DNA of 41,784 bases from a virus. Position 1 is the first letter of the stretch, and each line of letters begins with the position of its first letter. The position numbers and the translations under genes are program-made. The notes beneath the pieces are model-generated. The model ran no database searches and had not been told where the DNA came from. It was given only the letters and a program-made list of their open reading frames with translations. The stretch spans positions 1 to 41,784 of IMG/VR virus record IMGVR_UViG_3300032431_000020; one strand, 5' to 3'. Of this stretch, positions 2,686 through 37,252 are shown piece by piece.

Positions 2686-2973
2686 ATGCCCGAACGTATC
2701 CAGTTGCAGCGCACCAAGGGCTGGCGCATGCCGGCCGACACGGTGAAGGTCGACCGCTCCACCGTGTGGGGCAATCCCTACCGCGTGGGCGATGTCGTCG
2801 CGGGACTCGGAACTGTGTATGGCGCCGCCGACGCCGTGAGCTTCTTCCGGCGCTACTGCCTGCCGCCTGCCGGGCGCTCGTACGAAGAGCTGCGCGGGAA
2901 GAACCTGGCTTGTTGGTGCCGACTTGGCACTCCCTGCCACTCAGACGTGCTGCTCGAGCTGGCCAACCGCTGA
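2686..2973 (+). CDS. DUF4326-like protein (95 aa)
   Basis: RTKGWRMP...VDRSTVWGNPY...LRGKNLACWC...CHSDVLLELAN matches the DUF4326 pattern as I remember it. Internal ATG (residue 40) of track ORF 2569-2973. Confidence 0.7.
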   Translation: MPERIQLQRTKGWRMPADTVKVDRSTVWGNPYRVGDVVAGLGTVYGAADAVSFFRRYCLPPAGRSYEELRGKNLACWCRLGTPCHSDVLLELANR

Positions 2974-6538: not shown

Positions 6539-9507
6539 TATTCAATCACCCTGAAGTAAGTGGAGCCTGATTCGTTCGTGTACGTGTCGCCCACATCGTT
6601 GACGTAGGCTTCAATGACTTGCGGGCCTGTGAACTGCGGCAGGAACGTGACCGCGTAGCTCGCATTTGAATCCGGCGCGGTGTTGAACGTGACCGGCCGG
6701 AACAGCAGCACGCGCCCTGCCAGGGAAATATCCAGCGGCACAAAATAGACGCTGGAAAGCGTGGTGAAGCGGTCACCGATAGCGTGGGCGGCTTGCGTCG
6801 TACCGAGTCGGCCACGGCCCAGCCCGGTCAGGTCATAGTCATCAGCCGCGATCTCGTCCGCGTCGGTGAACTGCATGACCTCCGCGACGCCGCCGGACAG
6901 CACCGCCACCGGGTTACCGCCATCAGCGAACGTGGCCGGCGAGATGCTGTTCAGCGTGCCCCCGTGTACTGCAACCGCCAGGGTATCGGTGGGTAACGTG
7001 CCGATGGGCTCGCGCAGGTAGCCGATGACTGAGGGAACGATTGCCGATGCAATGACCGTTGACCAACTCGCACCGTCGTCCGTGGACATTTGCAGGAACG
7101 CGCCAGGCCATGCAGGCAGCAACCCGGCGAAGGCCATATACATGCCCGGCGAGTTGTCTTGCGATCGCAGGCGCGGCAGGTTCATCGCAGCAAACAGGGT
7201 GACGCCGCCAATGCTCGACGGTGGCTGCGCCGGCGGCAGCGCCGGGATCGGAGTCACATCGGCGGTGTATGCGCTCTGACGGTCATACTTGCCATGCACT
7301 TCGATCTCGCCATCCTTCAGCAATATCCGCTCTGAGACGAACCGCTTGTTGTAGAGGCTGAACGTCGCACCCGGCACCATCTCAAGGTATGTAGTGGTCT
7401 CGGTAGCGAACGGCACGGAGAACTTCACTTCGCCCTGCTGCCGCGCCCACTGAACCTTCATGCCGATGGCGGCCAACTCGCGCGAGGCTTCAGGTGCCAG
7501 CACCACAGACAGGTCGATAGACGACTCACCCAGGGCGCGCACGTCGGGGCTCAGGCGCCGCTCGGTCTGCGGGCGAACGGTGTAGTCCATCGTCGGGTCA
7601 ATGGCCCGCACGCTGAACAGTCGCGGATATTCAACCGGCTGGTTGCGCGTGTCCTCTTCGGTATCGTCGCTGCCTTCGATGAAGTCGTCGGGGTTCACGA
7701 CAAGATCAGTCGCGGAGCCGTGCTTGTGGAAGTTGACCTTGCCGTCATACTCGCTGCCGAAGCTGGTGTATGCCGTCATCAGCGGGCGCAGGCAGTCGGC
7801 CCCGTTGTAGGGTTGCAGGATCGGATAGCCCGGCAGCGTATCGGTCATCTCGGTTACGTCAATCTGCCCTGCCGTCACTCCGCTGCGCCCGCAGATGCGG
7901 GTGATGGCTGCGGCGACGGTGAGCGTGTCGGTGACAAGATCCACCGTGCTGTATGTGGCTTCGTACGCGCTAGATACTCCTGTTGGATAGCCTGCCGGGT
8001 AAACAAGCCCAGCAGGCATGGTCCCGGCGATAACTGCCGCATCGTAAGCAGCAGTCCAGAACGCCTCTGTGTTCTGCGGACTGTCCGTGTGGATGGTCGG
8101 CCCGACTTGGTACTGAATGAACTTCAGAACGCCGCCCACCGTGTCGGTTATCTCAGATTCCAGGCCGAGAAGCCCGAGTGTTGAGACGAGCGCGATCGTA
8201 GGTTTCGGCGTGACCACGCCAGCGCAGTCGATCAGGAAGCCATCGTTATCAGGCAGGATGGTTGGCTTTCCAAGAACGCACGGATCGCCTAGCTCGTTTG
8301 AAGGCGGGCGCGTGGTGCGGCGAGCCTTGATGAGCAGCGGCTCAAGTCCTGCGATTGCAGGGAACGCGTTGGCGCCGCAAGTGCCATTCCCCCGCAGCGC
8401 GGAATACTCCGCGCTTGCGACGGCAAAATACTTTTGCAGCGAGCCATCCCGGATGATGGTGAACTTAGAACCATCCGCTCCTGGGCAAATGGAATCCTTG
8501 GCCCCAGGGAATCGCTCAACGTCAAGGTAATCACTTGGCGCGAAGTCGTTGTAGACAAGCACCAGTTCCACATTATCCAGAACCGAATCCTGCGGAACGT
8601 AGGTGCTGATCCCGGAGGATTCTACGGCAAAATCGCTGGCGTGTGAGTAGCCTAAAAACTTGTTCGGTGTCGATCCGTAAAATGTATACGCCGCTGCGGC
8701 TTGGTCAATGATCGACTGGATCGTGTCGCCTGTAAAAGTGACAGTGCCTCCATCTTTTGTTGAGCGGTATCCTGAAAGCGTATACCTTGATTCTTCGTCC
8801 GCAAGCGGCCACGGTGCATTAACGAAGTCGGAATAATCAGGAAGCAGAAGCTCGGTCGTGGTCTCGGTCAGCACCTCACCCGCGCCAACCATGACGAACT
8901 CATACTGCGGGATGCGGTCGCCATAGGGCGCAAGGTTGATGTCGCGGCAGACGATGGTGAACACGCCGCGATAGGGCAGAGTGCGGCCTACGCCCGTGAT
9001 CGCTTCCATCGTCGGGTCGGGGAGCTGCGCTTCGTTGCCGTTGTAGAACGTGTGGTTGCGAAGGAACTTGGAGTTCTCTACTGTGAAGTTCGACTCGGGC
9101 CGCATGTCATAGACCACCTTCCCGTCGATCCGCACCATGAGGCAACCGGCCATCAGGCTGTTGCGGGTCTCGCTGGATTCGCAGATGAGGATGAGGAAGT
9201 CTTGATGCGCTTCGTAGGTGTTGACCTCGGTGCCGCTGCCCTTGCCATCGTCGGTTTTCTTGACGATGCGGCGCTCTGACTTCTGGCTGATGTTGCCCTG
9301 AACCCATCCGGCGGTCCCGAGTATCCACGCGATCGGCTGGCCGTCAGCGGAGGACTGGTTGGCACCGTCGCCGGGGCGCGGGCCGTTGACCTGGGTGGGG
9401 CTGATCCAGCCGCCGATGAGGCCGCCGATTGCCATGCCGATCTGGGGCGAGCCGAAGAACGCGCCGACTAGCCCGCCAACGGCTGTGCCTATCTGCTGGC
9501 CGCTCAT
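6538..9507 (-). CDS. Host-specificity / central tail-tip protein (RcGTA g15-like, lambda J analogue)
   Basis: 989 aa, directly after the NlpC/P60 gene. N-terminal glycine-zipper segment GTAVGGLVGAFFGSPQIGMAIGGLIGG. Confidence 0.8.
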   Translation of the reverse strand: MSGQQIGTAVGGLVGAFFGSPQIGMAIGGLIGGWISPTQVNGPRPGDGANQSSADGQPIAWILGTAGWVQGNISQKSERRIVKKTDDGKGSGTEVNTYEAHQDFLILICESSETRNSLMAGCLMVRIDGKVVYDMRPESNFTVENSKFLRNHTFYNGNEAQLPDPTMEAITGVGRTLPYRGVFTIVCRDINLAPYGDRIPQYEFVMVGAGEVLTETTTELLLPDYSDFVNAPWPLADEESRYTLSGYRSTKDGGTVTFTGDTIQSIIDQAAAAYTFYGSTPNKFLGYSHASDFAVESSGISTYVPQDSVLDNVELVLVYNDFAPSDYLDVERFPGAKDSICPGADGSKFTIIRDGSLQKYFAVASAEYSALRGNGTCGANAFPAIAGLEPLLIKARRTTRPPSNELGDPCVLGKPTILPDNDGFLIDCAGVVTPKPTIALVSTLGLLGLESEITDTVGGVLKFIQYQVGPTIHTDSPQNTEAFWTAAYDAAVIAGTMPAGLVYPAGYPTGVSSAYEATYSTVDLVTDTLTVAAAITRICGRSGVTAGQIDVTEMTDTLPGYPILQPYNGADCLRPLMTAYTSFGSEYDGKVNFHKHGSATDLVVNPDDFIEGSDDTEEDTRNQPVEYPRLFSVRAIDPTMDYTVRPQTERRLSPDVRALGESSIDLSVVLAPEASRELAAIGMKVQWARQQGEVKFSVPFATETTTYLEMVPGATFSLYNKRFVSERILLKDGEIEVHGKYDRQSAYTADVTPIPALPPAQPPSSIGGVTLFAAMNLPRLRSQDNSPGMYMAFAGLLPAWPGAFLQMSTDDGASWSTVIASAIVPSVIGYLREPIGTLPTDTLAVAVHGGTLNSISPATFADGGNPVAVLSGGVAEVMQFTDADEIAADDYDLTGLGRGRLGTTQAAHAIGDRFTTLSSVYFVPLDISLAGRVLLFRPVTFNTAPDSNASYAVTFLPQFTGPQVIEAYVNDVGDTYTNESGSTYFRVIE

Positions 9508-9953
9508 GGACGGAAGACCTCCACGATGCCATCGAACCAGCGATCACCGGCCACGCCGACGCCATGCTCCTGCACGCGCTTGTTCTCAGAGTGAACGTGG
9601 ATCATCCCCAGCCGTCCGCCGATTTCAGTCAGCAAGCCGACGTGGCGCGGCTCGCCGTCGAACTTGACCAACACCACGTCGGCGGGCCGCATCTCTGCCA
9701 TCGGCACTGCGGCCCCCAGGTTCGCCGCGAGCATGTCGCGCAGGCCGTTCTTGTGCGGCTCGCGCCCGTAGCCCTTGCGGTCCGTGTAGGGCCGGCCGAT
9801 CAGATTCATGCCCGCCCCCACCATGCCCACGCAGTCCAGCCCGATGGCCGGGTTCCGGCCTTGGTGACGGAACGGGACGCCCATGAAGGAACGGCACGCA
9901 GCGACAAGTGCCGCCGATTCGTCAGGGGTAAGGGGGTCCCCGATGGCGCGCAT
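9504..9953 (-). CDS. NlpC/P60 (C40) cell-wall peptidase of the tail tip (RcGTA g14-like)
   Basis: GLDCVGMV catalytic-Cys context with a downstream His. Position between the DUF2163 and J-like genes. Confidence 0.8.
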   Translation of the reverse strand: MRAIGDPLTPDESAALVAACRSFMGVPFRHQGRNPAIGLDCVGMVGAGMNLIGRPYTDRKGYGREPHKNGLRDMLAANLGAAVPMAEMRPADVVLVKFDGEPRHVGLLTEIGGRLGMIHVHSENKRVQEHGVGVAGDRWFDGIVEVFRP

Positions 9954-10918
9954 CAGACAGCCGCTACGCTGCCGGCGCCGCCGGTCGTGGTGCTAGGGCC
10001 AGTGGACGCCGCGCCGGGCGCCTGGAGCTGCTCAGACTCGCTGACGGGGCGATACCACTCGCCGCGATAGTTGGGCAGGTTGTCGAACTGGAAACAACTG
10101 TTCTCGCCATCCTCCACGACCGACCCGAACAGCAGGTTCGTGCAGTTGGGCCGACGCCTGCCCGTGTCGCCCACTTGGATCGGACGGTCCGTGGGCATGG
10201 TCAGCGTGACCACCGCGCCCACGTTGTCTTCGATCTCGAAGGTGCGGCCCGCGTTGTCGCCCGTGTACCACTCGGCAAGACCAGGACGCAGCGCGCTGTT
10301 GGCAGGGGCCGTGCCGTCCATCGTGAACACCCGGTCGGTTTCCAAGCCAACGGCATCCACTTCGAAGTCCTCCCACAGCGTAGCAACCGGGTACTTGCAA
10401 CGATCGTCGCCCATGGTAGCGCGGCAAGATACCGAGCCCATCTCGATGATCGAAAGCTGTTTCATCTGCTGGGTCAGGCTGCGCAGCTCGGGGAAGCAGA
10501 CCATGCGGTCCACTTGCCGGATGCGCCCGATGGTCCCAGATGAGATCAGCGCACGCCCTGCTGACAGATCAAGGTAGTCAACCAGATACTCCACATAGCT
10601 TGCATCGTCATACACGCCGCGCTCAATAGCGTCAGACGTAAAGCCGTCCATTTCAAACTCGGCTATCAGCACCTGCATTTCGGAGTTGTCCACCGCCAGG
10701 TCGGCAGTGGCGTCCAGTGCGAACGGGGTGTAGCCGCGCTTGGCCTTGTACGTCAGCAAGCCTTCCCCATCGTCATACTCGACATCCCGGTCCAGGCTGG
10801 TCAGGGCAATGACGGGATCTTCTGGCAGCAGGGGCGTGATCTTGGCCAGGCGGCAGTCTGTACTGGCTGGCTGGGCCATGCTGTCAGCAAGCGCAATCGG
10901 GATGTTGCGCTGGATCAT
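9953..10918 (-). CDS. DUF2163 / BR0599-type tail hub protein (RcGTA g13-like)
   Basis: CRATMGDDRCKYPV motif typical of the family, plus synteny. Confidence 0.75.
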   Translation of the reverse strand: MIQRNIPIALADSMAQPASTDCRLAKITPLLPEDPVIALTSLDRDVEYDDGEGLLTYKAKRGYTPFALDATADLAVDNSEMQVLIAEFEMDGFTSDAIERGVYDDASYVEYLVDYLDLSAGRALISSGTIGRIRQVDRMVCFPELRSLTQQMKQLSIIEMGSVSCRATMGDDRCKYPVATLWEDFEVDAVGLETDRVFTMDGTAPANSALRPGLAEWYTGDNAGRTFEIEDNVGAVVTLTMPTDRPIQVGDTGRRRPNCTNLLFGSVVEDGENSCFQFDNLPNYRGEWYRPVSESEQLQAPGAASTGPSTTTGGAGSVAAV

Positions 10919-11529
10919 TCGACGAATACCTCGATCAGATCAATCTGCCCGTTCATGGCGTAGGCATCAGCGCCTCGCCGGTTGTCGATGGACATGGGCA
11001 GGGAGTCAGATGCGAACCTGACTGCAACCCGGAACTCACCGGACCACGTAAGCACTGCGCCTGGAGTCCATGCCGATGTCGGGATGAACAGCCCAGTCAA
11101 GGGGTCAGCAGCGCCCGCCTTCACCACGCCGTTCTGCTTGACCACCACCGTCCCGGCAACGGGCTTGGTGATGATCCGCTCATAGAACGCCGCGCCCTCA
11201 AAGTTGGCCAGGTGGATAAGCTGCACTGCGGCCGATCCAGAAGGGGCCAGCCCCAGCGGGTCATCCACCGATAAATAGTCGCTGTCATCCTTCACCAGAA
11301 AGCTATGCAACTGACCACGGACGGCAAGGAACGCGGCCTTAAGTTTCATCAGGTACTCATCGCTGCTGATGTTGTTGAAAGGCAGCGTGTAGCGATGGCG
11401 TACAAGGTCATTCAATCCCCTGCGCTTCTCACGGCCACTGCGGAGCATCCGAACGTCCGTATTGAACTCCGGCGATGCCTGCCAGCCAAAGCCGGGGCAC
11501 ACGTCGATCTCGACCGGATACAGCGCCAT
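10915..11529 (-). CDS. DUF2460 distal tail protein (RcGTA g12-like)
   Basis: ~200 aa directly after the tape measure. C-terminal FRVAVRFASDSLPMS-type motif. Confidence 0.75.
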   Translation of the reverse strand: MALYPVEIDVCPGFGWQASPEFNTDVRMLRSGREKRRGLNDLVRHRYTLPFNNISSDEYLMKLKAAFLAVRGQLHSFLVKDDSDYLSVDDPLGLAPSGSAAVQLIHLANFEGAAFYERIITKPVAGTVVVKQNGVVKAGAADPLTGLFIPTSAWTPGAVLTWSGEFRVAVRFASDSLPMSIDNRRGADAYAMNGQIDLIEVFVE

Positions 11530-13691
11530 CAGTTATTCCTCCGCGCGGCTTCGCTGGTCAGTGAAGCCAACTTCTGGTTCTTCTGGCTCTCGGTGCGGGC
11601 GTCATAGGGTGCGCGGTAGTTGATTGCGATGTTCTGCACAACCCCGGCGCCGCCCATCGTTTGGCGATTCGGAATGATTGACCCTGCGGTGTTGGGCCGG
11701 AACCACTCGGGCCCTCGCTCGCCTACCAAGTAACCCTTGGATGGACTGACAGGACCGCCATTGGCGCGCGCGCCGCCGAAGAATGAACCAAAGAGTGCGG
11801 CTAACCCGCCACCACCCCCTTGCTGCTTGCCGTCGCCGCTGAATGAGTTGAACAGCGCGTCTATCGCCTTGTCCGTGGTGAACTTCAGCGCGCGGGCGAA
11901 CAGGTCATCCATGAAGTCGCCGAACGCTTCCTTTGCAGACTTGGCACCAGTGGCAAAGTCAACGAAGGCATCAGACAGGCCATCCTTGAAGTCGTCCATA
12001 AAGTCCTTCATTTCATAGCCACGCTCAATCTCGTCAAACAGGGCGCTTGCTGCGGCCCGCTGTTCATCGGTAGCGTCTGCCTCAAGGTGACGCAGGAAGA
12101 TCGCCTTCTCCCTTGCCACATTGGACAAGCCCATGATGTCCAGTTCGAACTGCATGTCTTCCAGCAACCTGTCGGTATTCTCTATCGCCCGCTCGCGCTG
12201 CTCTACCTCGCGCTCAGCCAATGCTATGGCCTTCTCTGTTTCCTGATTCGCCTTGAAGTCCGCGTCAAACTTCTCGGCAGCAGCCAGGGCCAATCCCTTC
12301 TGCGCCTCGGTAAGCTTGGAAAGCCCACCGAACTGGATGTCATAGGAAACCTTGGCCGCTTCACCCTCCGCGCCAATCAGGGCGGTACGCTCCTTGAGGG
12401 ATTCGATCAGCCCTTCATAGGAAGCAATCAGGCGCTCGGCCTCTACTTCCTCATCTGACTTGCGGGCTGTTTTTGCGCCACCGCCGCCGGATCTTGTTGG
12501 CTTGGGCGCATCTCCAAACGCCATCTTGCGCAGGCGCTCAGCCTCTGCGCGGGCGGCACGCATCTGCTCCACAATCTGCCGATCAGCTACGGTGCCAGTT
12601 ACTTTGGACGTAACGCCTGCAAACAGGTTAGGGACATTGGCCTCGTTTGCAGCCTCATCTACGCCATTGAATAGCGCGCTGGCAATCCCCTTGCCGGCAT
12701 CCTTGTATGCGCCCACTGCCTTGGAATAAGCGCCAGCATCAAGGCTGAATACCGCATCGGCCATGTCGCGGGCCGCGCCCCTGGCGTCACGAAGGCCATC
12801 GGCAACGGCTGTCAGTTCCCTGCGGAACACAGCCCCCTTGTCCGCGCCCTGCTGGAAGAAGCCAGCCACCGCACGGATGGCGTCTGCAATCTCGACGGCT
12901 GTCTTAGTGAGCCCGTCCCCTTCCTTGGCAGAGTTGACCCACTCATCGGTCAGCCGTTGCAAGTCAGGCAGCAGTTCAGCAGCGACGGCATTTGCCAGCC
13001 CGCTGGCAAGACTCTGCATACGGGTCAGGTTGTCGTTGAACGCCTCGGCTTGCTGGGCAGTCTCCGTGGAGATGATCTGCCCGAACGCGGCCGCCTCATC
13101 GGCTGCATCGCGCAAGCCCTGCGAACCATCCTTGATCAGCGGGATTAGGTTCTGGAAGCTACGCCCGAATATCTGAAGGCCCGCAGCGATGATCTCCGGG
13201 GAGCCTTCCTGCCGCTTGAAGGCGTCGGCGAAGTCAGCCAGAACCTCGTCGGCGCCACGTAGCTTCCCCGTGGCGTCGGTAACAGCAATGCCCAGCGCAC
13301 CAAAGACCTTGGCCTGCTGGCTGGTCGTCTTGAGCGCCTCGGCCTGAGACTTGACCAGCTTGCCCAGGCTCGACTGAAGATCGCCAATTGACACGTCTGC
13401 GAGTTTGCCGGCATAGGTCAACGCGCTGAACTGTTCGACCGGCAAGCCAACCCGCTGGCTGGCCTTGCTCAGCTCGTCCATGTTGTTGATGGACTGGCGA
13501 AGGGCATTGACAGCGAGCGTTGCACCCGCTGCCAGTGCCGTCCCCAATACGGCGCCGGCCTGCTTGGCATACCGCTGGATATTGTCCAGGCGCTGCTTGG
13601 CCGTGCGCTCAGCAGCAGTCATGCCTGCGGTGAACTGGCTCGTCTTGGCAACCAGGTCGAGCGTCAGCGTCCCGAGTGAGCGGCTTGCCAT
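11529..13691 (-). CDS. Tail tape measure protein
   Basis: 720 aa, Ala/Leu/Gln-rich helical protein following the G/G-T chaperone pair. Confidence 0.9.
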   Translation of the reverse strand: MASRSLGTLTLDLVAKTSQFTAGMTAAERTAKQRLDNIQRYAKQAGAVLGTALAAGATLAVNALRQSINNMDELSKASQRVGLPVEQFSALTYAGKLADVSIGDLQSSLGKLVKSQAEALKTTSQQAKVFGALGIAVTDATGKLRGADEVLADFADAFKRQEGSPEIIAAGLQIFGRSFQNLIPLIKDGSQGLRDAADEAAAFGQIISTETAQQAEAFNDNLTRMQSLASGLANAVAAELLPDLQRLTDEWVNSAKEGDGLTKTAVEIADAIRAVAGFFQQGADKGAVFRRELTAVADGLRDARGAARDMADAVFSLDAGAYSKAVGAYKDAGKGIASALFNGVDEAANEANVPNLFAGVTSKVTGTVADRQIVEQMRAARAEAERLRKMAFGDAPKPTRSGGGGAKTARKSDEEVEAERLIASYEGLIESLKERTALIGAEGEAAKVSYDIQFGGLSKLTEAQKGLALAAAEKFDADFKANQETEKAIALAEREVEQRERAIENTDRLLEDMQFELDIMGLSNVAREKAIFLRHLEADATDEQRAAASALFDEIERGYEMKDFMDDFKDGLSDAFVDFATGAKSAKEAFGDFMDDLFARALKFTTDKAIDALFNSFSGDGKQQGGGGGLAALFGSFFGGARANGGPVSPSKGYLVGERGPEWFRPNTAGSIIPNRQTMGGAGVVQNIAINYRAPYDARTESQKNQKLASLTSEAARRNN

Positions 13692-25126: not shown

Positions 25127-25299
25127 CAGGCAATGTCTGCACGGATGGCTGTCTCAACTACCGTCCGCAGCGCACGCTCAGCATCCCGCTTCCGGGTATG
25201 GCTCTCCCCCTGGGCGATGATCCGGCCGTTTACGGCTTTCAGGTGCCAGCGCCATTCGCCACTTGTGTCTTGGAATACGTGGAACTTGGGCTGCCTCAT
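25126..25299 (-). CDS. DUF1508 (YegP-like) protein, 57 aa
   Basis: KFHVFQDTSGEWRWHLKAVNGRIIAQGESH.. matches the YegP repeat pattern. ATGA overlap with the Rz stop. Confidence 0.65.
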   Translation of the reverse strand: MRQPKFHVFQDTSGEWRWHLKAVNGRIIAQGESHTRKRDAERALRTVVETAIRADIA

Positions 25300-25835
25300 G
25301 GCTTGGGGCTCCCTGAACACGTCACCTGCATGGCCTTCACGACCTGCTGAAGCCCGATCACCTGGGCGTCGCACGCTCGGGCTGCTCCAATAATTCGCCC
25401 GACACTTTCTTCAACGTCTCCGGTGCCTTCATCAGCGCGGCCGGCGGCGGCGACACTTGCGGACAGACGGGAGGTGGAGAGGGCCGCTTGCCAACGCTGG
25501 TGCAGGCGGACATTGCCAGAGCGCAGGTCAGCGACAAGGCGATCATTGGCAGCTTGGTCACGGGCGTCTTTCTCCTGTTGTTCCCGGTCGATCCGGGCCA
25601 TCTCGGCGGTGTGCTTCTGTTCCTGGTCCCTGGCCCACGTCACAAACTGGACGCGCTCCTCGGCAATGCTGGCCGTCTGGGTGGCTAGCGCGGTCTGCGA
25701 TTCGGCAAGGTCAGCCCGCAGGCCCGATGCCTTGGCCCACTGCCAGCCGCCGAACCCAAGGGCCAGCACCAGGGCGGCCAGCAGGCCGTACAGGATCGGT
25801 GTGGTCAGGAAGCGGGTCATGCCCTGCCCTGCCAT
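25296..25835 (-). CDS. Rz: i-spanin (Rz-like); alternative start at 25820
   Basis: N-terminal TMD ILYGLLAALVLALGFGGW followed by a long charged coiled coil. Contains the embedded o-spanin gene. Confidence 0.75.
   Translation of the reverse strand: MAGQGMTRFLTTPILYGLLAALVLALGFGGWQWAKASGLRADLAESQTALATQTASIAEERVQFVTWARDQEQKHTAEMARIDREQQEKDARDQAANDRLVADLRSGNVRLHQRWQAALSTSRLSASVAAAGRADEGTGDVEESVGRIIGAARACDAQVIGLQQVVKAMQVTCSGSPKP
25358..25561 (-). CDS. Rz1: o-spanin (Rz1-like lipoprotein), embedded in Rz in another frame
   Basis: Signal plus lipobox ALAMSAC. The mature part is Pro-rich (RPSPPPVCPQVSPPP). Confidence 0.75.
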   Translation of the reverse strand: MTKLPMIALSLTCALAMSACTSVGKRPSPPPVCPQVSPPPAALMKAPETLKKVSGELLEQPERATPR

Positions 25836-29579: not shown

Positions 29580-29849
29580 TCATGCCGCCAGCTTCCGGAT
29601 GACGTCGTTCAAGCAGGTCAGTTCGGTCTTCTTCATGACGTTCCACATGGAGCGCCTGCCGTGAATCCCGTTGTGCGAGCCTCGGTGGCAGTCTTCGCAA
29701 AGCGGCACCGTGGTGAAGTGCTGGCCCTGCTCAATGTGGTGCGCTTCGCTTGGACCCTCGCGCGCGCAGACCGCGCAGGGTTGGGACTTGACCCATGCCA
29801 GGTGCGCGCGCTCGGCCGGCGTGATGCGGGCGGCGTTCTTCGTTCTCAT
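29580..29849 (-). CDS. HNH-type nuclease, DUF968/Ref-like
   Basis: PCAVC...EAHHI...VPLCEDCHRGSHNGIH. Confidence 0.6.
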   Translation of the reverse strand: MRTKNAARITPAERAHLAWVKSQPCAVCAREGPSEAHHIEQGQHFTTVPLCEDCHRGSHNGIHGRRSMWNVMKKTELTCLNDVIRKLAA

Positions 29850-30781
29850 TCGCCATCACATAGGCCGAGGTCGGAATTGCACCCGCCCGGTTGCTGGTCT
29901 GAGAACAGCGAGTAACGCCGCCCACCGCGCTCGGTGCGTGACCACTCAACCACGTCGCGGATGCCCGCATATCCAGCCCGCCCTTGGTCTTTGTCTGTCG
30001 GATCGGTGCCGGCGGCGAAGAATGTCGAGGAACGCCGCTTGCTTGCACGCGACACCACCAACTCCCACCGCTCGATCTTGTCGATGTGTTCTGGCGACCA
30101 ATGCGCGATTGCCCGCAATTCCGGCTTGGCGCAGTTGACGCAGGGATAGCAGCCGACCCGCCCCATGCCCATTGCATAGAGCGGGTTCGGCGCGATGCCG
30201 TGCCGGGTGTGCTGGGCCCAAACATCGGCCAGCTTCCAGCGGAAGATGGGGCGCCAGAGGTAGGCGCCGGTGTCGTCGCGGTTGTAGACCGGCATGGCGG
30301 CGCGGCGTGCGCTTTCCTCGGCGCGGATGCCGAGCCATTGTAACAACGGCCCGGCCTTGAGCATCGGCAACACGACCTGCTGGGTGATCGGCAGAACCTT
30401 CAATTCCTCGGTGCAGAACTGCGCACGCCGGGAAGGAAACCGGCCCTTGAGGATGCACAAGTCTAGATAGGGATTTCCGGTCGGCTCATGCAGCGCCGCC
30501 GCCTCCTGCACTATCTCTTCGGGGATACCCTCGTCAGGCCACCTCGCCAGGACATAGGCGCGATGCCGGGCCAGGGCCTTAGAAAAGTCAGCCCGTACAG
30601 TCTCAATCGCGGGCCCGCCGGTGCGGCCGGCCAAGGTGGAAACGTACTCATAGGTCAGAGGGTGCTCGTTGCCGGTATCGGCGAACACCGCACGGAACGG
30701 GCGCCCTAACTCGATGGCGCGCAGGTAGGTGGCGGTCGAATCCTTTCCGCCGCTGACGCTGACCAGGTGCTGGATCTCCAT
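29846..30781 (-). CDS. PAPS-reductase-family (PP-loop ATPase) protein
   Basis: PP-loop SVSGGKDS near the N-terminus. C-terminal GRVGCYPCVNC cysteine motif. Confidence 0.8.
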   Translation of the reverse strand: MEIQHLVSVSGGKDSTATYLRAIELGRPFRAVFADTGNEHPLTYEYVSTLAGRTGGPAIETVRADFSKALARHRAYVLARWPDEGIPEEIVQEAAALHEPTGNPYLDLCILKGRFPSRRAQFCTEELKVLPITQQVVLPMLKAGPLLQWLGIRAEESARRAAMPVYNRDDTGAYLWRPIFRWKLADVWAQHTRHGIAPNPLYAMGMGRVGCYPCVNCAKPELRAIAHWSPEHIDKIERWELVVSRASKRRSSTFFAAGTDPTDKDQGRAGYAGIRDVVEWSRTERGGRRYSLFSDQQPGGCNSDLGLCDGE

Positions 30782-31326: not shown

Positions 31327-32768
31327 GTGTCACCGCCGGCGGCTGCAGACTTGCCGTCGTTGACCCTCTTGAACCCCTTCCGCTCCCGCTTCTCGGCAGG
31401 ATCCGGGAGCGGCGCAGGCTCCCAGTCGTATCGCAGGTTCGAGAACTTGAATCGGCCCGGGTCATAGGCCGCGCGCACCATCCCGGGTGGCCCGTTGCGC
31501 TGCATCGCCACGTCCAGCTCCGCCGTTCCACTGTCCCGGCTGTCGCGGTGATAGACCTCGTCGCGGTAGATGAAGATCACCGCGTCAGCGTCTTGCTCGA
31601 TTGCGCCTGAGTCGCGCAGGTCTGAGGGGATCGGCCGGCGGTCGGTCCGCTTCTCCAGGTCGCGGTTCAACTGCGACAGCAGCAGCACCGGTATGCCCAG
31701 CTCGCCGGCCATCAGCTTCAGCGCTCGGGTGATGTCGCCGATGCCCTGGGCGCGATTGTCGCCACGGGTCTCCATCAGCTGCAGGTAGTCGATCACCACC
31801 AGGCCCAGCGGGTCGCGTGCATGCTGCCGGCGCACCTGGGCAACGACGTGGTCGACCCGGGCGCGGCGCGGGCGCGAGATGAATATCCTCGCAGCGTTCA
31901 GCGTGCGCATGGCGCGGGTGACGTTGGCCCAATCGACGTCGTCCAGCTCGCCGCGGCGGATCCGGTTGCCATCCACCCCGCCGATGCTGCTCAGCATGCG
32001 GTCGCCCAGCTCGTCGGGCTGCATCTCGAACGAGAACACGGCCACGGCCTGCTTCTCGACCAGCGCCACGTGCTCGGCGATGTTCTGTGCCAGGGTCGTC
32101 TTGCCCATCTTCGGGCGCGCCGCGAGTAGGTACAGGCCGCCAGGGCGCAAGCCGCCGATCAGCTCGTCCAGCTCGGTGATGCCCGTGGCCAAGCCGTGGA
32201 TGCCGTGCTCGGTCTGGCTGCGCTCGGTCAGCTTGTCGAACACCCGCTGCATCAGCGGGACCATCGTTTCGAGTTCGCATGGCTGGTTGTCCAGGAGCCC
32301 ACCGATCCGGCTCTGCGCTTCGCCGATCAGCTCCACACTGCTGCGGCCCTCCGGCTGGAATCCTGCGTCCACTAGCGCCGATCCCACCTCGATCAGCCGG
32401 CGCATGCGCGCCTTGTCCGCCACGATCTCGGCATAGGCCTCGATGTTGGCCGCGCTGGGGACGGTGTTCGACAGCTCGACCAGGTAGAAGCCGCCGCCCA
32501 CCTGCTCAGCGGCGCCATGGGCTTCGAACCAATCACCCAGGGTGACCGTGTCGAAAGGCTTCGGCGGCTTGGCCTCGGCGAGTTCCTTGATCGCGCGCCA
32601 GATCAGCTGGTGATCGCGACGGTAGAAGTCGCCCTCCTCAAGCTTGTCCGCTACCCGCCACCAGGCGCTGGCCACCAGCATCAGCCCTCCCAGGACAGAT
32701 TGCTCGGCGTCGATGCTGTGCGGCGGCACGCGCACGTGGTCGAGGCGTTCGAAGCCTTCGCGCATCAT
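31323..32768 (-). CDS. dnaB: Replicative DNA helicase DnaB
   Basis: PPHSIDAEQSVLGGLM N-terminus, Walker A ARPKMGKTT, LVVIDYLQLM, RDSGAIEQDADAVIFIYR. Confidence 0.95.
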   Translation of the reverse strand: MMREGFERLDHVRVPPHSIDAEQSVLGGLMLVASAWWRVADKLEEGDFYRRDHQLIWRAIKELAEAKPPKPFDTVTLGDWFEAHGAAEQVGGGFYLVELSNTVPSAANIEAYAEIVADKARMRRLIEVGSALVDAGFQPEGRSSVELIGEAQSRIGGLLDNQPCELETMVPLMQRVFDKLTERSQTEHGIHGLATGITELDELIGGLRPGGLYLLAARPKMGKTTLAQNIAEHVALVEKQAVAVFSFEMQPDELGDRMLSSIGGVDGNRIRRGELDDVDWANVTRAMRTLNAARIFISRPRRARVDHVVAQVRRQHARDPLGLVVIDYLQLMETRGDNRAQGIGDITRALKLMAGELGIPVLLLSQLNRDLEKRTDRRPIPSDLRDSGAIEQDADAVIFIYRDEVYHRDSRDSGTAELDVAMQRNGPPGMVRAAYDPGRFKFSNLRYDWEPAPLPDPAEKRERKGFKRVNDGKSAAAGGDT

Positions 32769-33757
32769 GCGGCTTCCCCAAACAGCGCGCGCTGCGCCGC
32801 CTCGTGCCGCGCGCGCTCCATGTCCTGCTCGCGCGTCAGTACGGCCGCTGCAATCCGCGCCTCGGCGATGGCGGCGTATTCGGGGTTAAGCTCGCAGCCC
32901 ACCCAGCGACGATCCAGCCGCTCACAGACGACAGCGGTTGTGCCGGCGCCCATGAACGGGTCGAGCACCAGGTCGCCAGCGCGGCTCCCCGCCAGGATGC
33001 ACGGCTCGATCAGCGCCTCGGGGAAGGTGGCGAAGTGGGCCTCCTTGAAGGGCATCGTGGCCACGGTCCAAACGCTGCGCTTGTTGCGGGTTTCGCCATT
33101 AGATACCGCCTTCATGGTCCCGTTGGTTTTGCCAGGCACTCGGTCGCTGCCCTGCTGGTTGTCCAGGTTCGCTTGCGACAGGCGGGCAATGCTAGATGCT
33201 GCCAGCGGCTCGGCAATGGCATCGGCATCGAAGTAATAGCGCGGCGACTTCGACAGCAGGAAGATGTATTCGTGCGACTTCGTGCAGCGGTCGCGCACCG
33301 ACTCGGGCATCGGGTTGGGCTTGTGCCAGATGATGTCCTGGCGGAGATACCAGCCGTCAGCCTGCAGGGCGAAGGCTACGCGCCACGGGATGCCGATTAG
33401 GTCTTTTGACTTTAGTCCAGCGGGCGGCTTTTGTTGCCGACTCACGCTAGCCCTCTGCGATGATTGCCCGCCCTGTAATCCTGATGTTTCTTCAGTCGGA
33501 TTTCCGCCGCGCCCTGAAGATGCGTAACTATCCCCCAGGTTCAGCCACAACGTACCGTCATCCCGCAGCACGCGCCGGACCTCGCGTAACCTCGCGACCA
33601 GCGCCACCACGAACTCATCGGGCGTCGGCTCCAAGCCAATCTGACCGGCCATGCCGTAGTCGCGCAGGCCGAAGTAAGGCGGGGAAGTGACGCACGTCTG
33701 GACCGATTCGGCGTCCAGGGTCCGCATGACCTCAAGGCAGTCGCCGACGTGGATCAT
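32765..33757 (-). CDS. DNA methyltransferase, beta-class N6A/N4C (SPPY ... FxGxG order)
   Basis: CVTSPPYFGLRDY (motif IV) N-terminal and DPFMGAGTTAVV (motif I) C-terminal. Start at residue 76 of the track ORF (ATGA overlap). Confidence 0.9.
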   Translation of the reverse strand: MIHVGDCLEVMRTLDAESVQTCVTSPPYFGLRDYGMAGQIGLEPTPDEFVVALVARLREVRRVLRDDGTLWLNLGDSYASSGRGGNPTEETSGLQGGQSSQRASVSRQQKPPAGLKSKDLIGIPWRVAFALQADGWYLRQDIIWHKPNPMPESVRDRCTKSHEYIFLLSKSPRYYFDADAIAEPLAASSIARLSQANLDNQQGSDRVPGKTNGTMKAVSNGETRNKRSVWTVATMPFKEAHFATFPEALIEPCILAGSRAGDLVLDPFMGAGTTAVVCERLDRRWVGCELNPEYAAIAEARIAAAVLTREQDMERARHEAAQRALFGEAA

Positions 33758-34611
33758 GCCGCCGCCTCCGTCATCGCCCGGTCGAACAGCTTCGCCATGA
33801 CGTTCTCGCGCAGCAGGTACTCGAAGTCGGGACTCCAGTTCTCGTGCCCGGGTCCACCCTTCGCTCGCCCGCTGTGCCAGTCGTCCTTCTCGACCTCCTC
33901 GAAGTAGGCCCGCCAGAACTCCGGGGTGATGCGCTCGTTGCCGTACAGCGTCCGGCACATGGCGCGCGCGGTCGGAAGGCACTTCTCCACGGCCTTGATC
34001 CGAGGTTTGTTCATCACCGCGCAGGCGGGTAGTTCACCGTGAGGTTTTGCAAGAACTGCGTTGTAGGCCGCTGCAGCTTCATCTGAAATCTGCCTGACTC
34101 GCGCAGCGAGATTTGTTTTCGGGTTCGGCGGTGCGGGGGTCAACGCCAGCGGCGTGGACGACTCTGAGCGTAGCGAAGACTCCTGTTCCCTTCCCTTCCC
34201 TGTTCCCTGTTCCCTGTTCCTTTCAGGTGATGCGTCCTCAGTGAGTTGTGTGTGAGTCTGCGGTGAGGAATCAGGGATAACCCCAAGAGCCTTGATTTTG
34301 CTGGGGGTTGGACGGTTCACCCGCTGGTGAAGGTCGAAGTTGTTGACCAATCCGAAGCGCTTGCCATCGGGGCTCGTGAGCGCCGTGATAAACCCGATTT
34401 CGCACAGCGATTTGAGGCTGTCTTGAATACTCACTGAGGGCTCACGGAGTGGTGAGCACGCGGCTTTGACCAGACCAGGGTTCGCGTTGAAGTACCCTTC
34501 GTCGTCGGCGTGGTTCAGCAGCGCGGCGGCGAGCATGTGAGTCGCCTCGGGCAGCGCGCTCAGATCCTCGTGAGTCCAGAACTCCGGCTTGATCGTGCGG
34601 ATTCTGGCCAT
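33754..34611 (-). CDS. Putative replication initiator / helicase-loading protein
   Basis: MARIRTIKPEFWTHEDL... N-terminal domain, low-complexity linker, C-terminal domain. Position immediately upstream of the MTase and dnaB. Confidence 0.55.
   Translation of the reverse strand: MARIRTIKPEFWTHEDLSALPEATHMLAAALLNHADDEGYFNANPGLVKAACSPLREPSVSIQDSLKSLCEIGFITALTSPDGKRFGLVNNFDLHQRVNRPTPSKIKALGVIPDSSPQTHTQLTEDASPERNREQGTGKGREQESSLRSESSTPLALTPAPPNPKTNLAARVRQISDEAAAAYNAVLAKPHGELPACAVMNKPRIKAVEKCLPTARAMCRTLYGNERITPEFWRAYFEEVEKDDWHSGRAKGGPGHENWSPDFEYLLRENVMAKLFDRAMTEAAA
34180..34221 (-). repeat. GGGAACA/GGGAA short tandem repeat tract inside the initiator-like gene (candidate origin iterons)
   Basis: Minus strand GGAACAGGGAACAGGGAACAGGGAAGGGAAGGGAACAGGAG. 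Confidence 0.6.
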
Positions 34612-35077: not shown

Positions 35078-35299
35078 TCAGGCGGCTTCAGAGGCCGGCG
35101 CGGGCTCGCCGAAGACGTCCGGACGCAGGTCGTGCCTGGTCACAGCGCCGCCGGTCGCCCGCTCCACCTCGGCGCAGCGATGCGCCGGGACCTGGCCCCG
35201 AGCGCGCCAGTTGCTGACGACGTTCTGGGCGGTCCCGATTGCGAGGGCCAACTTGCCGACACCGCCGGCTGCTTCGATTGCTTTCGTGAGTGCGTCCAT
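35078..35299 (-). CDS. Cro-like HTH repressor (YdaS/Cro family); the longest ORF extends to 35329
   Basis: GGVGKLALAIGTAQNVVSNWRARGQVP HTH. The start at 35299 is preferred because the early promoter and an operator occupy 35306-35334. Confidence 0.7.
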   Translation of the reverse strand: MDALTKAIEAAGGVGKLALAIGTAQNVVSNWRARGQVPAHRCAEVERATGGAVTRHDLRPDVFGEPAPASEAA

Positions 35300-35305
35300 G
35301 GCGGC

Positions 35306-35334
35306 ATCATCACGCATCGTGATTACCATGTCAA
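35306..35334 (-). promoter_or_regulatory. Early rightward-type promoter (PR-like) for the cro operon
   Basis: Minus strand TTGACA (35334-35329), 17-nt spacer, GATGAT (35311-35306). Same geometry as the promoter at 36936-36964. Confidence 0.6.
35309..35323. promoter_or_regulatory. Operator OR-a, ATCACGCATCGTGAT (perfect dyad)
   Basis: ATCAC-N5-GTGAT overlapping the PR spacer and -10. Confidence 0.6.
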
Positions 35335-35347
35335 CACGCAGCGTGTT
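35333..35347. promoter_or_regulatory. Operator OR-b, AACACGCAGCGTGTT (perfect dyad)
   Basis: AACAC-N5-GTGTT overlapping the PR -35. Confidence 0.6.
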
Positions 35348-35355
35348 AGACGGGC

Positions 35356-35370
35356 ATCACAGCTCGTGAA
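35356..35370. promoter_or_regulatory. Operator OR-c, ATCACAGCTCGTGAA
   Basis: ATCAC-N5-GTGAA, 11 nt upstream of the cI-like ATG. Confidence 0.5.
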
Positions 35371-35380
35371 GAATGGGCGC

Positions 35381-35803
35381 ATGGCCTTTTCCGACAACTT
35401 GCGGCGCACCCGGCTGGCAAAAGGCATGACCCAGGAGGCGCTGGCCATGGCCTGCGGCTGGTCTGGCCAGAGCCGGATCGCCAACTACGAGTCGGGCAGC
35501 GCAAGCGCCCGGGAGCCCAAGGTTTCCGAGGTCCCGCTGCTGGCCAAGGCCTTGGGCGTCTCAGTTGCCGAACTGTTTGATGAGGTGCCGTCGCAGTCCC
35601 AGCGACTGGACGCTGAGAAGCTGGCCGACCTGCTGGCAACGGTTGAGGCAGCCATCGCCCAGAGCGGTCGCCAGGTCCCAGTGCGGACCAAGGCGCGTCT
35701 GGTAGCGGCGCTATACGTTGACGAGCAGGCTTCAGTGGCGGGATCCGCTCAGGCGGTCCAGGCAGCCCTGGCCAGCATCTTGTCGTTAATGGAGGAAGCA
35801 TGA
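35381..35803 (+). CDS. CI-like repressor, XRE-family HTH, no S24 peptidase domain (140 aa)
   Basis: LRRTRLAKGMTQEALAMACGWSGQSRIANYESG HTH. Divergent from cro across the operators. Internal ATG (residue 180) of track ORF 34844-35803. Confidence 0.8.
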   Translation: MAFSDNLRRTRLAKGMTQEALAMACGWSGQSRIANYESGSASAREPKVSEVPLLAKALGVSVAELFDEVPSQSQRLDAEKLADLLATVEAAIAQSGRQVPVRTKARLVAALYVDEQASVAGSAQAVQAALASILSLMEEA

Positions 35804-36108
35804 ACCCACTACTGCGCGAAGAACTGGCGGCGATCCTTGCCGAGGCTCCCTTGCCCCAGATGCCTTTGGACCTGGTATTCGAGCCGATCGACGTGTCGCC
35901 CCGGGCCAAGAAGATGCGCGCTATCCTGCGCATTGCCGACATGCACGGCTGGCGCTCGGCGATCACGCACTTCCTCGAATCGCGCAATGCGTCCTACCTG
36001 TCCGACCTGACCGACCCGCAGCTGGACGACCTTGCAGATCGGATGGAGGGCTACGTGGACGCCGCGGAGACCGGATCAAGCCTGGCAGATTGCCTGCCGG
36101 CCAGCTGA
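35800..36108 (+). CDS. Hypothetical acidic cytoplasmic protein (102 aa), coupled to cI
   Basis: Track ORF with ATGA overlap onto the cI-like stop. Confidence 0.65.
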   Translation: MNPLLREELAAILAEAPLPQMPLDLVFEPIDVSPRAKKMRAILRIADMHGWRSAITHFLESRNASYLSDLTDPQLDDLADRMEGYVDAAETGSSLADCLPAS

Positions 36109-36136
36109 AGAACGGACACTGACTAAGGGGAAAGTG

Positions 36137-36547
36137 ATGAAATGGATTCTTGGGGCGAGTCTCTTGTTGGCCGGATGCAGCAGCACGCAGGTCTACAGCA
36201 ACTATCCAGCCGGAAACGCGCCGGCAGCCGCGAATGCGGGCCACGTGGCGGTGATCTACAGCTACCCCCAGCGGCCCTATGACGTGATCGGCGTGGTGTC
36301 AGCCAAGCGTTACAAGCCGGGCTGGAGTGATCCCACCGTCAGCGACGCCATCCCACAGCTACAGGCGGCCGGCGCTCAGCTAGGGGCCGATGCGGTGGTC
36401 GTTAGGTCATCCCGCAGCAACAACGATCGTCACACCGTCGTGGAAGCCGAAGCGATCAGGTATTTGGACAAGGAGACGCAACCGACGTCGGTTCCGGGGC
36501 ATGACGATCCCGCAGCTGAAATGAAGTGGAAGCCGCGCGGCACATAG
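36137..36547 (+). CDS. Lipoprotein (136 aa)
   Basis: MKWILGASLLLAGCSS lipobox. AAGGGG RBS. Internal ATG (residue 36) of track ORF 36032-36547. Confidence 0.75.
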   Translation: MKWILGASLLLAGCSSTQVYSNYPAGNAPAAANAGHVAVIYSYPQRPYDVIGVVSAKRYKPGWSDPTVSDAIPQLQAAGAQLGADAVVVRSSRSNNDRHTVVEAEAIRYLDKETQPTSVPGHDDPAAEMKWKPRGT

Positions 36548-36562
36548 CCCCACAAGCAGGAG

Positions 36563-36865
36563 ATGGTCATGGAAGGCGTAGCAGCACTGAGCCTAGTTCT
36601 CGGGTTTTTCCTCTTCATCCTGGCGATCCTCTGGATACTGGTGCCGTTCGCCATATTCGGGATCAAGCCGATCCTCAGCCAGATCCTTGGAGAGCAGCGC
36701 AAGACGAACCAACACCTGGCTGCGCTGGCGATCCAGGCGCAGCCGGTGACGCAGCCCGGCACTTCCCACCCTGCCCCATCCACGCGTCCGCCCGCCCCGC
36801 AAGCGGCCCCACCGCCTCCGCCAGCTGACGAGCGAACGCTGGCCGAGCGAATGCGGGACCAGTAG
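36563..36865 (+). CDS. Small membrane protein with Pro-rich C-terminal tail (100 aa)
   Basis: ~30-residue hydrophobic stretch ALSLVLGFFLFILAILWILVPFAIFGI. GGAG RBS. Confidence 0.7.
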   Translation: MVMEGVAALSLVLGFFLFILAILWILVPFAIFGIKPILSQILGEQRKTNQHLAALAIQAQPVTQPGTSHPAPSTRPPAPQAAPPPPPADERTLAERMRDQ

Positions 36866-36879
36866 CCAAGACCCCATCG

Positions 36880-36903
36880 AACCCCGCTCAGGCGGGGTTT
36901 TCT
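36880..36903 (+). terminator. Intrinsic terminator ending the cI operon
   Basis: AACCCCGC-TCAG-GCGGGGTT followed by TTCT (T-run continuous with the stem). Confidence 0.75.
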
Positions 36904-36922
36904 ATGCCTGTTCAGAAAAAAC

Positions 36923-36937
36923 ATCACGCTGTGTGTT
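36923..36937. promoter_or_regulatory. Operator OL-a, ATCACGCTGTGTGTT
   Basis: Same half-sites as the OR operators. Overlaps the -35 of the early-left promoter. Confidence 0.6.
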
Positions 36938-36964
36938 GACAGACGAATCACGCTGTGTGATTCT
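36936..36964 (+). promoter_or_regulatory. Early leftward-type promoter (PL-like)
   Basis: TTGACA, 17-nt spacer, GATTCT preceded by TGT (extended -10-like). Confidence 0.6.
36947..36961. promoter_or_regulatory. Operator OL-b, ATCACGCTGTGTGAT (dyad arms ATCAC/GTGAT)
   Basis: Overlaps the spacer and -10 of the early-left promoter. Confidence 0.6.
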
Positions 36965-37003: not shown

Positions 37004-37252
37004 ATGGCAAACACCGATCCGCAGGGCCAGCTTCAGGCCGCTGCCAAAGCCTGGGGGGATCTCCAGCACGCTGAGTCTCAGGTAGCCCGCCTGCGCGGCT
37101 ACAGCGCCCTGACGCCCGGCATGAAGGACGACCAGCGCAAGGCGCTGCGGACCGTCGAAGAGTCCCGGGCGGTACTGAACACCGTGCTGCGCATGCCGGC
37201 GCTGTCCGCCGCCCAGATGGCCGAGGGTGACGCGACCGAGGATCGGCGATGA
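37004..37252 (+). CDS. Hypothetical protein (82 aa), first gene of the early-left operon
   Basis: Track ORF. GGGAG RBS at 36992-36996. Confidence 0.65.
   Translation: MANTDPQGQLQAAAKAWGDLQHAESQVARLRGYSALTPGMKDDQRKALRTVEESRAVLNTVLRMPALSAAQMAEGDATEDRR

Follow-up and report, generated by a model that had tools for sequence, protein, structure and literature searches.

Three separately inherited genes occupy the rexAB-like slot behind the repressor of a lambda-like Xanthomonadales phage

The IMG/VR virus record IMGVR_UViG_3300032431_000020, 41,784 nucleotides (nt) long and referred to here over its whole length as the window, carries three genes behind the gene for its CI-like repressor. They encode a short acidic protein (open reading frame 1, ORF1), a lipoprotein and a small membrane protein (ORF3), and the order along the DNA is cI, ORF1, lipoprotein, ORF3, a hairpin terminator and the OL operators (Table 1). 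An original prediction, made from the sequence alone, had placed the three genes in the slot that rexA and rexB hold in lambda and had proposed that they form a single exclusion or defence module expressed by the prophage. The position was recognized correctly, since the succession of cI, cargo genes, terminator, OL/PL and an early-left operon with a RecT-like gene is that of lambda. The genes themselves were found to be three separately inherited genes and not one system.

The repressor is built of an N-terminal helix-turn-helix (HTH) domain, whose Pfam HTH_3 match also placed the start of cI at 35381, and a short helical C-terminal domain. Pfam gave only HTH matches in this 140-amino acid protein and no S24 peptidase domain, so that it lacks the makeup of the self-cleaving LexA/CI type. 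The gene is divergent from that of a Cro/YdaS-like early repressor, and on the cro side a promoter scan found the promoter-like sequence TTGACA-17-GATGAT on the minus strand (35334-35306). One of the three OR operators is perfect, one has a single mismatch and one has two mismatches, and the only two perfect copies of ATCAC-N5-GTGAT in the 41.8 kb lie one at OR and one at OL. A TTGACA at 36936-36941 stands among the OL sites, is overlapped by the operators and is presumed to be part of the rightward early promoter (PL). The third OR operator ends 11 nt ahead of the cI ATG and a -10-like hexamer, AAGAAT (35369-35374), ends 6 nt ahead of it; because both sit so near the start codon, the cI mRNA may be leaderless, as from lambda PRM. 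No Xanthomonas-type LexA box was found anywhere in the phage at three or fewer mismatches. That neither an S24 domain nor a LexA box was found adds some weight to the question of what ORF1 does.

The cI stop codon overlaps the ATG of ORF1 in the sequence ATGA, cI ending at 35803 and ORF1 starting at 35800, just as had been read earlier. The successive intergenic distances from cI through ORF1 and the lipoprotein gene to ORF3 are -4, 28 and 15-21 nt, and the G+C content at third codon positions (GC3) is 0.74-0.81 across all four genes with no compositional break. The hairpin which closes the operon has the form AACCCCGC-TCAG-GCGGGGTT followed by TTCTAT, and 4 of 200 shuffled sequences folded equally well. 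It was not listed by a strict terminator scan because its T run is short. The hairpin ends 18 nt short of the first OL site, and the earlier claim of a terminator just before OL-type operators was thus found to describe a real feature. A consensus scan found no plus strand promoter within 35800-36865, which agrees with the original prediction and is a weak negative, the same scan having missed the presumed PL too. Since the genes are tightly packed and the first is translationally coupled to cI, transcription of ORF1, the lipoprotein gene and ORF3 together with cI, as had been proposed, is the simplest reading.

We assembled 93 loci around relatives of each of the three proteins from genomes, IMG/VR viral contigs and metagenomes, and scored them with three family profiles. 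An ORF1-type gene was directly upstream in 6 of the 31 assessable lipoprotein loci, ORF3 was downstream in one of 41, and the lipoprotein was the next gene in 3 of the 39 assessable ORF1 loci. The full trio recurred only in the loci L022 and L023, in the same order, and in L022 a hairpin with a T7 run comes after it, then operators whose specificity is different. ORF1, the lipoprotein and ORF3 of the window are 71%, 62% and 39% identical, respectively, to those of L022. These linkage counts do not support the proposal that the three genes make up one cassette with a common defence architecture. Conservation of the trio beside the repressors of related prophages, which had been put forward as a check on that proposal, was likewise not seen outside L022 and L023, and across the 93 loci the genes assort independently.

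Searches with the three proteins returned nothing significant from Pfam, PHROGs, PADLOC or NCBIfam. The best PADLOC match for any of them was no better than E 0.03 and none was to the Rex models, there were no PHROG lysis matches, and tblastn against 50,697 deposited phage genomes found no relatives. Numerous uncharacterised relatives of each protein were nevertheless found in metagenomes and among Xanthomonadales genomes. The earlier failure to place the three proteins in a known defence family was borne out by these results. Foldseek searches with predicted structures, which had also been suggested, were informative for the lipoprotein, which proved to be RcsF-like, and failed for ORF1.

The place after cI and ORF1 was examined across the related phages. 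Counting the window, 21 genes start no more than 50 nt after the end of an ORF1 homologue, and every one is predicted by hydropathy and lipobox heuristics to encode an exported or membrane protein. Fifteen of these have an N-terminal signal or anchor, nine of which carry a lipobox and represent several unrelated families, and the other six are zinc-ribbon proteins with a transmembrane segment. Such a content is the pattern that would be expected of prophage genes that remodel the envelope. Because the slot is full of envelope proteins in related phages, superinfection exclusion by the lipoprotein and by ORF3, each acting alone, would be a reasonable guess. A slot with many unrelated exported proteins is typical of superinfection-exclusion genes in Pseudomonas and enteric prophages. 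In six loci (L031-L035 and L060) the place of the lipoprotein is held, approximately 24-46 nt past the ORF1 homologue, by a protein of 144-173 amino acids that has a CxxC…CxxC zinc ribbon at its N-terminus and also a strong transmembrane segment. A second exported family, with the motif CGLVNAKNS-x-G-x-Y-x-G, was seen in two unrelated phages (L004, 6399-6758; L061, 4197-4646), once after the lipoprotein and once directly after ORF1.

The lipoprotein opens with the signal MKWILGASLLLAGC, in which the predicted LLLAGC lipobox (LAGC) and the serine at +2 were both confirmed, and AAGGGGA lies 6 nt ahead of its ATG. The lipobox cysteine is the only one in the protein and is invariant in 23 homologues. 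Because of the serine at +2 and the lack of retention-type residues, the sequence suggests default sorting to the outer membrane. The family comprises at least 164 homologues and has 34 invariant columns and the core motif YKPGWTDPTVSDAIPQL…GADAVVVRSSRSNNDRHTVVEAEAIRY; every named member is from the Xanthomonadales, the named hosts being Lysobacter, Luteibacter, Pseudoxanthomonas, Rhodanobacter and Dyella.

An AlphaFold2 model of the lipoprotein has a low-confidence, flexible tether of about 25-30 residues and then a confident alpha/beta core (predicted local distance difference test, pLDDT, 78-93). When the model was compared with the PDB using Foldseek, the top three matches were all RcsF (2L8Y at E 3e-4, then 2Y1B and then 6T1W, which is a complex with BamA; E 3e-4 to 7e-3), with template modelling (TM) scores of 0.60-0.66 on the target. 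Francisella FvfA, DUF74/YbjQ and YdgH followed in the ranking, and the best named match in a viral structure library was a YdgH/BhsA/McbA-like phage protein. An hhalign comparison with E. coli RcsF aligned 111 columns colinearly from end to end (probability 68%, E 4.6e-5). The window lipoprotein scored 12.6 bits against DUF4156, below the gathering cut-off of 28.9, and 13 of the 23 homologues matched this family weakly (best E 3.5e-4), so that on sequence the protein may be at most a distant DUF4156 relative. The original prediction could not place this protein; Foldseek, hhalign and the Pfam matches of its homologues now supply fold relatives of the RcsF and DUF4156 kind.

An RcsF orthologue was considered and rejected. 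Pfam RcsF matched neither the window lipoprotein nor any of the 23 homologues at E values up to 1, and the four disulphide cysteines of RcsF are absent, the aligned positions being occupied by other residues and the mature protein having the lipobox cysteine only. A sequence-profile search of the PDB with the lipoprotein also gave no match. RcsF, the best fold match, is likewise a lipoprotein in which a disordered tether leads to a small alpha/beta domain. However, RcsF is an enterobacterial outer-membrane stress sensor with four disulphide cysteines, while the window protein is approximately 20% identical to it, has a single cysteine and is phage- or island-borne. To our knowledge the Rcs phosphorelay is confined to the Enterobacterales and the Xanthomonadales are without it. 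We found no literature linking RcsF-like or DUF4156 proteins with prophages.

The lipoprotein gene was found in the immunity regions of unrelated prophages (L003, L004, L016-L018 and L022) and, by itself, in chromosomal islands that are not syntenic, next to smpB in L014 and next to the gene for a PIN_12 protein in L001. The latter, in Luteibacter flocculans (6001-7476 of the locus), has the lone lipoprotein gene followed 4 nt later by that for a 373-amino acid PIN_12-domain protein; the island lies close to the gene for seryl-tRNA synthetase. In a Rhodanobacter metagenome-assembled genome (L015, 5001-5349) a frameshift breaks the lipoprotein gene in two, and this copy is either a pseudogene or an assembly error. 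Two further loci (L062 and L063) have the gene not downstream of the ORF1 homologue but convergent with it at a distance of about 700 nt, another sign of independent insertion. We rejected the idea that the lipoprotein is encoded by a host core gene, as its copies in chromosomes share no synteny and are found in island-like DNA of low GC3. The gene is most likely an independent, envelope-acting cargo gene, possibly one for superinfection exclusion.

ORF1 has a predicted pI of 4.5, with 17 acidic and 9 basic residues, and belongs to a family of at least 239 homologues, with Xanthomonas and Pseudoxanthomonas among the named hosts, which fall into 86 clusters at 50% identity. A HMMER search with the ORF1 profile against 1.84 billion representatives found just these 86 clusters. 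Except for three long outliers with multiple stretches of similarity the clusters are 43-136 amino acids long, and the C-terminal domain is common to the members. Remote relatives are named only as 'hypothetical protein', a family scan of all members gave only weak Lsr2-like noise, and neither a PDB sequence-profile search nor a fold search of the PDB (best E 1.7) gave a match or an analogue. In the AlphaFold2 model (pLDDT 82) an N-terminal helix is joined through a loose linker to a C-terminal domain of three helices.

At 41 ORF1 loci, the window among them, we measured the distance to the ORF upstream on the same strand. It ends no more than 5 nt from the ORF1 start in 28 loci, often with an overlap of 1 or 4 nt, and within approximately 40 nt in 37; the larger offsets are those of long-form ORF1 relatives, whose start codon could not be fixed. 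The proteins encoded upstream are short HTH repressors with helical C-terminal domains; their genes diverge from Cro-like genes, and an S24 domain is absent from all of them. Two remote members hold the same position in the same early region; ahead of P0333 a called gene of 145 amino acids on the same strand ends 19 nt upstream, and ahead of P0317 no gene is called in 490 nt. The ORF1 family, in short, directly follows a short CI-type repressor without an S24 domain and travels with this repressor and not with the envelope genes.

For comparison of the two proteins each repressor was divided into its N-terminal, DNA-binding part and its C-terminal part, and each ORF1 into its N-terminal segment and the conserved C-terminal domain. 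The class of the repressor C-terminal domain coincided with the class of the ORF1 N-terminal segment in all 25 loci that could be scored, while the DNA-binding HTH classes recombine freely across these pairs. The correlation of the similarity matrices was 0.58 between the repressor C-terminal domain and the ORF1 N-terminal segment, against 0.36 between the two parts of the repressor, 0.30 between the repressor N-terminal part and the ORF1 N-terminal segment, and 0.46 between the two parts of ORF1. The repressor of L004, for example, has an N-terminal domain 67% identical to that of the window, yet its C-terminal domain and its ORF1 type both differ. The ORF1 C-terminal domain is conserved everywhere (mean similarity 0.68) and has invariant columns. 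Its near-invariant tail, ...G-x-S-L-x-D-C-L-P-A-x, stands at the C-terminus. Among ORF1 relatives (A2, P0305-P0385) the conserved extreme C-terminus reads ...DCLPA-x, or ...PDAPPAR in remote members, and the long forms have a P-x-LR[LV]V motif after the first helix; both could be docking or degradation signals. The possibility that the N-terminal helix of ORF1 mimics the last helix of the repressor was tried and rejected, cognate pairs scoring 17.7, non-cognate pairs 16.8 and shuffled sequences 16.5 +/- 3.8.

ORF3 has one hydrophobic span, with a Kyte-Doolittle maximum of 2.98 over 19 residues (residues 7-25), and a proline-rich tail. These features had been correctly noted in the original prediction for a protein of 100 amino acids; the start at 36563 which it used is less likely than that at 36569, which is favoured by the spacing of an AGGAG and by the database gene call P0241 (98 amino acids). 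The 64 homologues, from Luteimonas, Pseudoxanthomonas and Stenotrophomonas, share an invariant transmembrane core, LAILWILVPFAIFGIKPLL, comprising F14, I20-W22, L24-A28, F30-K33 and L36. The tail is variable, often proline-rich and at times ends in D-x-R-T-L-x-E, and members scanned against family models gave no match. One relative lies in the core chromosome of Pseudoxanthomonas dokdonensis between fpg and the FGase gene (L024), and another adjoins an S24-type CI in a Stenotrophomonas prophage (L026). ORF3 is, to judge from these relatives, a host-derived small membrane protein that is independently mobile.

The window as a whole is a complete lambda-like temperate siphovirus genome with a Xanthomonadales host. 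Its integrase is a large serine recombinase and not a tyrosine integrase, no tRNA genes are present in the window, and an Rfam scan of it found no RNA family. At the place equivalent to that of the methyltransferase-like ORF, the related locus L004 has an N6_N4_Mtase gene. The sole DNA-level match to deposited phages, approximately 64 bp at 80-88% identity (37070-37135), is to hypothetical genes of the Xanthomonas phages Xoo-sp2 and Elanor and lies inside the first gene after OL.

Table 1. Coordinates of the features discussed, in the numbering of the window.
Feature	Position	Strand	Basis or remark
Serine integrase (large serine recombinase)	2766-4547	+	PHROG 95, E 2.7e-82
Tail genes	4673-13691		
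Major head protein	17055		
Portal	20994		
Large terminase	22334		
Rz-like spanin, within late-gene cluster	25296-25835		PHROG 2466, E 5.7e-20
PAPS-reductase-like gene	29846-30781	-	PHROG 424, E 2.7e-62
DnaB-type helicase	31323		
ORF resembling DNA methyltransferase	32765-33982	-	DPPY-type motif, judged by eye in translation
Replication initiator	33754		
Cro/YdaS-like early repressor, 83 amino acids, divergent from cI	35078-35329	-	Pfam YdaS_toxin, E 2.4e-20; P22_Cro, E 1.2e-8
OR, three operator half-palindromes ATCAC-N5-GTGAT at 35309, 35333 and 35356	35309-35370		Spacing 23-24 bp
CI-like repressor, 140 amino acids	35381-35803	+	Pfam HTH_3, E 1.8e-11; PHROG transcriptional repressor families
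ORF1, acidic four-helix cytoplasmic protein, 102 amino acids (predicted)	35800-36108	+	Translationally coupled to cI
Lipoprotein, 136 amino acids, tether and alpha/beta core	36137-36547	+	Lipobox, fold match
ORF3, single-pass membrane protein, 98-100 amino acids	36563 or 36569 (probable start)-36865	+	Hydropathy, family alignment
Intrinsic-terminator-like hairpin closing the cI operon	36879-36905	+	-17 kcal/mol, z = -2.4
OL, two operators at 36923 and 36947 (second perfect)	36923-36964	+	
RecT-like annealing protein, in rightward early operon past OL	40055		

The best explanation of these data, one to which we give moderate confidence, is that three independently inherited genes, and not one system, form a mosaic at the distal end of the lysogenic (cI) operon. 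ORF1 would belong to the immunity module and, because the stop and start codons overlap, would be made in step with the repressor. Its variable N-terminal segment would bind the C-terminal domain of its own repressor and its conserved three-helix domain would contact some conserved host or phage factor, and ORF1 would thereby tune the repression or induction of a repressor incapable of self-cleavage, as a co-repressor or induction adaptor. The simplest reading of ORF1 is that of a putative stoichiometric partner of the repressor that modulates the switch and is not a defence effector. The lipoprotein, once lipidated, would be sent by default to the outer membrane, where its RcsF-like core on the flexible tether would bind something conserved in the envelope, for instance a barrel protein of the outer membrane or the machinery that assembles such proteins. 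It would so alter the surface of the lysogen, and the most likely effect would be that incoming phages are stopped at adsorption or at DNA entry. ORF3 would be a small inner-membrane protein of host origin, and its invariant transmembrane helix presumably has a conserved docking partner in the membrane.

Several observations weigh against this account. The match between repressor C-terminal domain and ORF1 N-terminal segment could be explained by the physical linkage of adjacent DNA with no contact between the proteins, and such a block would be bounded by two conserved, recombination-prone segments. The activity of ORF1 is a guess because it has no structural analogue. The likeness of the lipoprotein to RcsF is remote and says little about a binding partner, and the protein could equally be a host-fitness factor, in stress, surface properties or virulence, as an anti-phage one. 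The same trio in the same order in another phage lineage (L022/L023) makes some functional cooperation conceivable, and the sampled loci come from three different queries and are in part short contigs.

There is precedent for the role proposed for ORF1. RexA of lambda binds CI through their C-terminal domains and favours the lytic state (bioRxiv 10.1101/2021.04.19.439022), which makes it a slot protein acting on the switch. The co-repressor Lxc/Bof of P1, gp7 of GIL01, which works with LexA, and the antirepressors Tum and Ant served as the working model. These are small proteins that alter the action of a phage repressor by binding. Their genes are not translationally coupled to the repressor gene, however, and they are unrelated to ORF1 in sequence. 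We liken ORF1 to P1 Lxc and lambda RexA in role, and infer its contact with the repressor from linkage alone. A bolder version, on balance doubtful, would make ORF1 the founder of a new class of repressor-bound switch proteins. It would be a two-part adaptor whose N-terminal segment reads the C-terminal domain of its own S24-less CI and whose near-invariant C-terminal domain and tail link that repressor with some conserved factor of the host, for instance a protease, RecA or RNA polymerase, supplying the missing route of induction or stabilisation.

The main rival to the mosaic of independent immunity and exclusion genes, a possible one if rather less than probable, is that the lipoprotein, ORF3 or both are lysogenic-conversion genes, comparable to lambda Bor and Lom, which benefit the host in envelope stress, surface properties or virulence and have nothing to do with phages. 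The lipoprotein kept alone in islands after prophage loss (L001, L005 and L014) would fit such a role, as would its fold relatives, envelope proteins with links to stress or virulence (RcsF, YdgH/BhsA and Francisella FvfA), and the relatives of ORF3 in a core chromosome. The variety of unrelated exported proteins in the slot speaks instead for exclusion, and the broken Rhodanobacter copy, taken as a pseudogene, also counts against a conversion gene. T5 Llp, Cor of phi80 and N15, Ltp of Streptococcus phage TP-J34 and lambda Bor are also small phage or prophage lipoproteins, acting at the envelope as the window protein would, and Ltp is described as a prophage lipoprotein that serves in exclusion (PMC3952083). 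None of them shares a Pfam or PHROG family match with the window lipoprotein, and none appeared among its PDB or viral fold matches.

It is unlikely that ORF1 itself acts in exclusion or abortive infection, or that it is a toxin paired with the HTH protein in the manner of a toxin-antitoxin system, and does not modulate the switch. Co-expression from overlapping frames with an Xre-type HTH protein is shared with many toxin-antitoxin pairs, and lambda RexA holds the same position. The HTH protein of the window, however, is a true phage repressor, facing a divergent Cro gene over three OR operators with two more sites at OL, and ORF1 matched no toxin or defence model, so that the type II combination of an Xre-type HTH protein and a toxin is not what was found here. 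The family is known only from this position in prophage switches, and its N-terminal segment tracks the class of the repressor C-terminal domain and not any downstream gene.

Slighter still is the likelihood that the three proteins act jointly as one prophage-expressed exclusion or defence system spanning the envelope, a functional analogue of RexAB whose parts would be cytoplasmic, an outer-membrane lipoprotein and a protein of the inner membrane. In lambda, as here, genes lie between cI and a terminator before OL, on the predicted repressor transcript, and would be made in the lysogen. This position, the operon-like packing and the recurrence of the ordered trio in another phage lineage, whose immunity specificity differs, all favour a joint system. 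RexA is a protein of 279 amino acids and RexB has four membrane spans. Neither resembles the window proteins in sequence, size or topology, nor was there a PADLOC match. The two-gene unit of lambda, a cytoplasmic sensor and a multi-pass membrane protein that are inherited together, is not what was found in the window, where ORF3 has a single span and the genes assort independently; the window slot holds one repressor-linked gene and two unrelated envelope genes. The linkage counts, the lone occurrences of the lipoprotein in islands and of ORF3 in a core chromosome, and the uneven identities with L022, which are not those of a co-evolving unit, also argue against a joint system. Finally, an outer-membrane-type lipoprotein adjoining a small single-pass membrane protein with a proline-rich tail could suggest an outer-membrane spanin with an inner-membrane spanin or holin, misplaced from the lytic cycle, an identity that is effectively refuted, as the phage has its own Rz-like spanin elsewhere, the two genes lie outside the lysis cassette and give no PHROG lysis match, the lipoprotein is a globular alpha/beta protein of 136 residues, and both genes occur singly and outside phages.

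If none of these readings holds, the region would be an ordinary cluster of cargo genes. The compact ORF1 family is new and deserves testing as a modulator of the switch. Should it bind the repressor, this would explain how non-self-cleaving repressors are controlled and induced in a large group of Xanthomonadales prophages, and ORF1 and the repressor would be a modular pair with swappable specificities. With the lipoprotein, phages would for the first time be seen to employ an RcsF-like protein, and it could point the way to a conserved target in the outer membrane, possibly a receptor for phages; plant pathogens and phage-therapy candidates are among the bacteria of this group. The slot behind cI and ORF1 is itself a rich source of prophage envelope proteins, and one that is easily mined.

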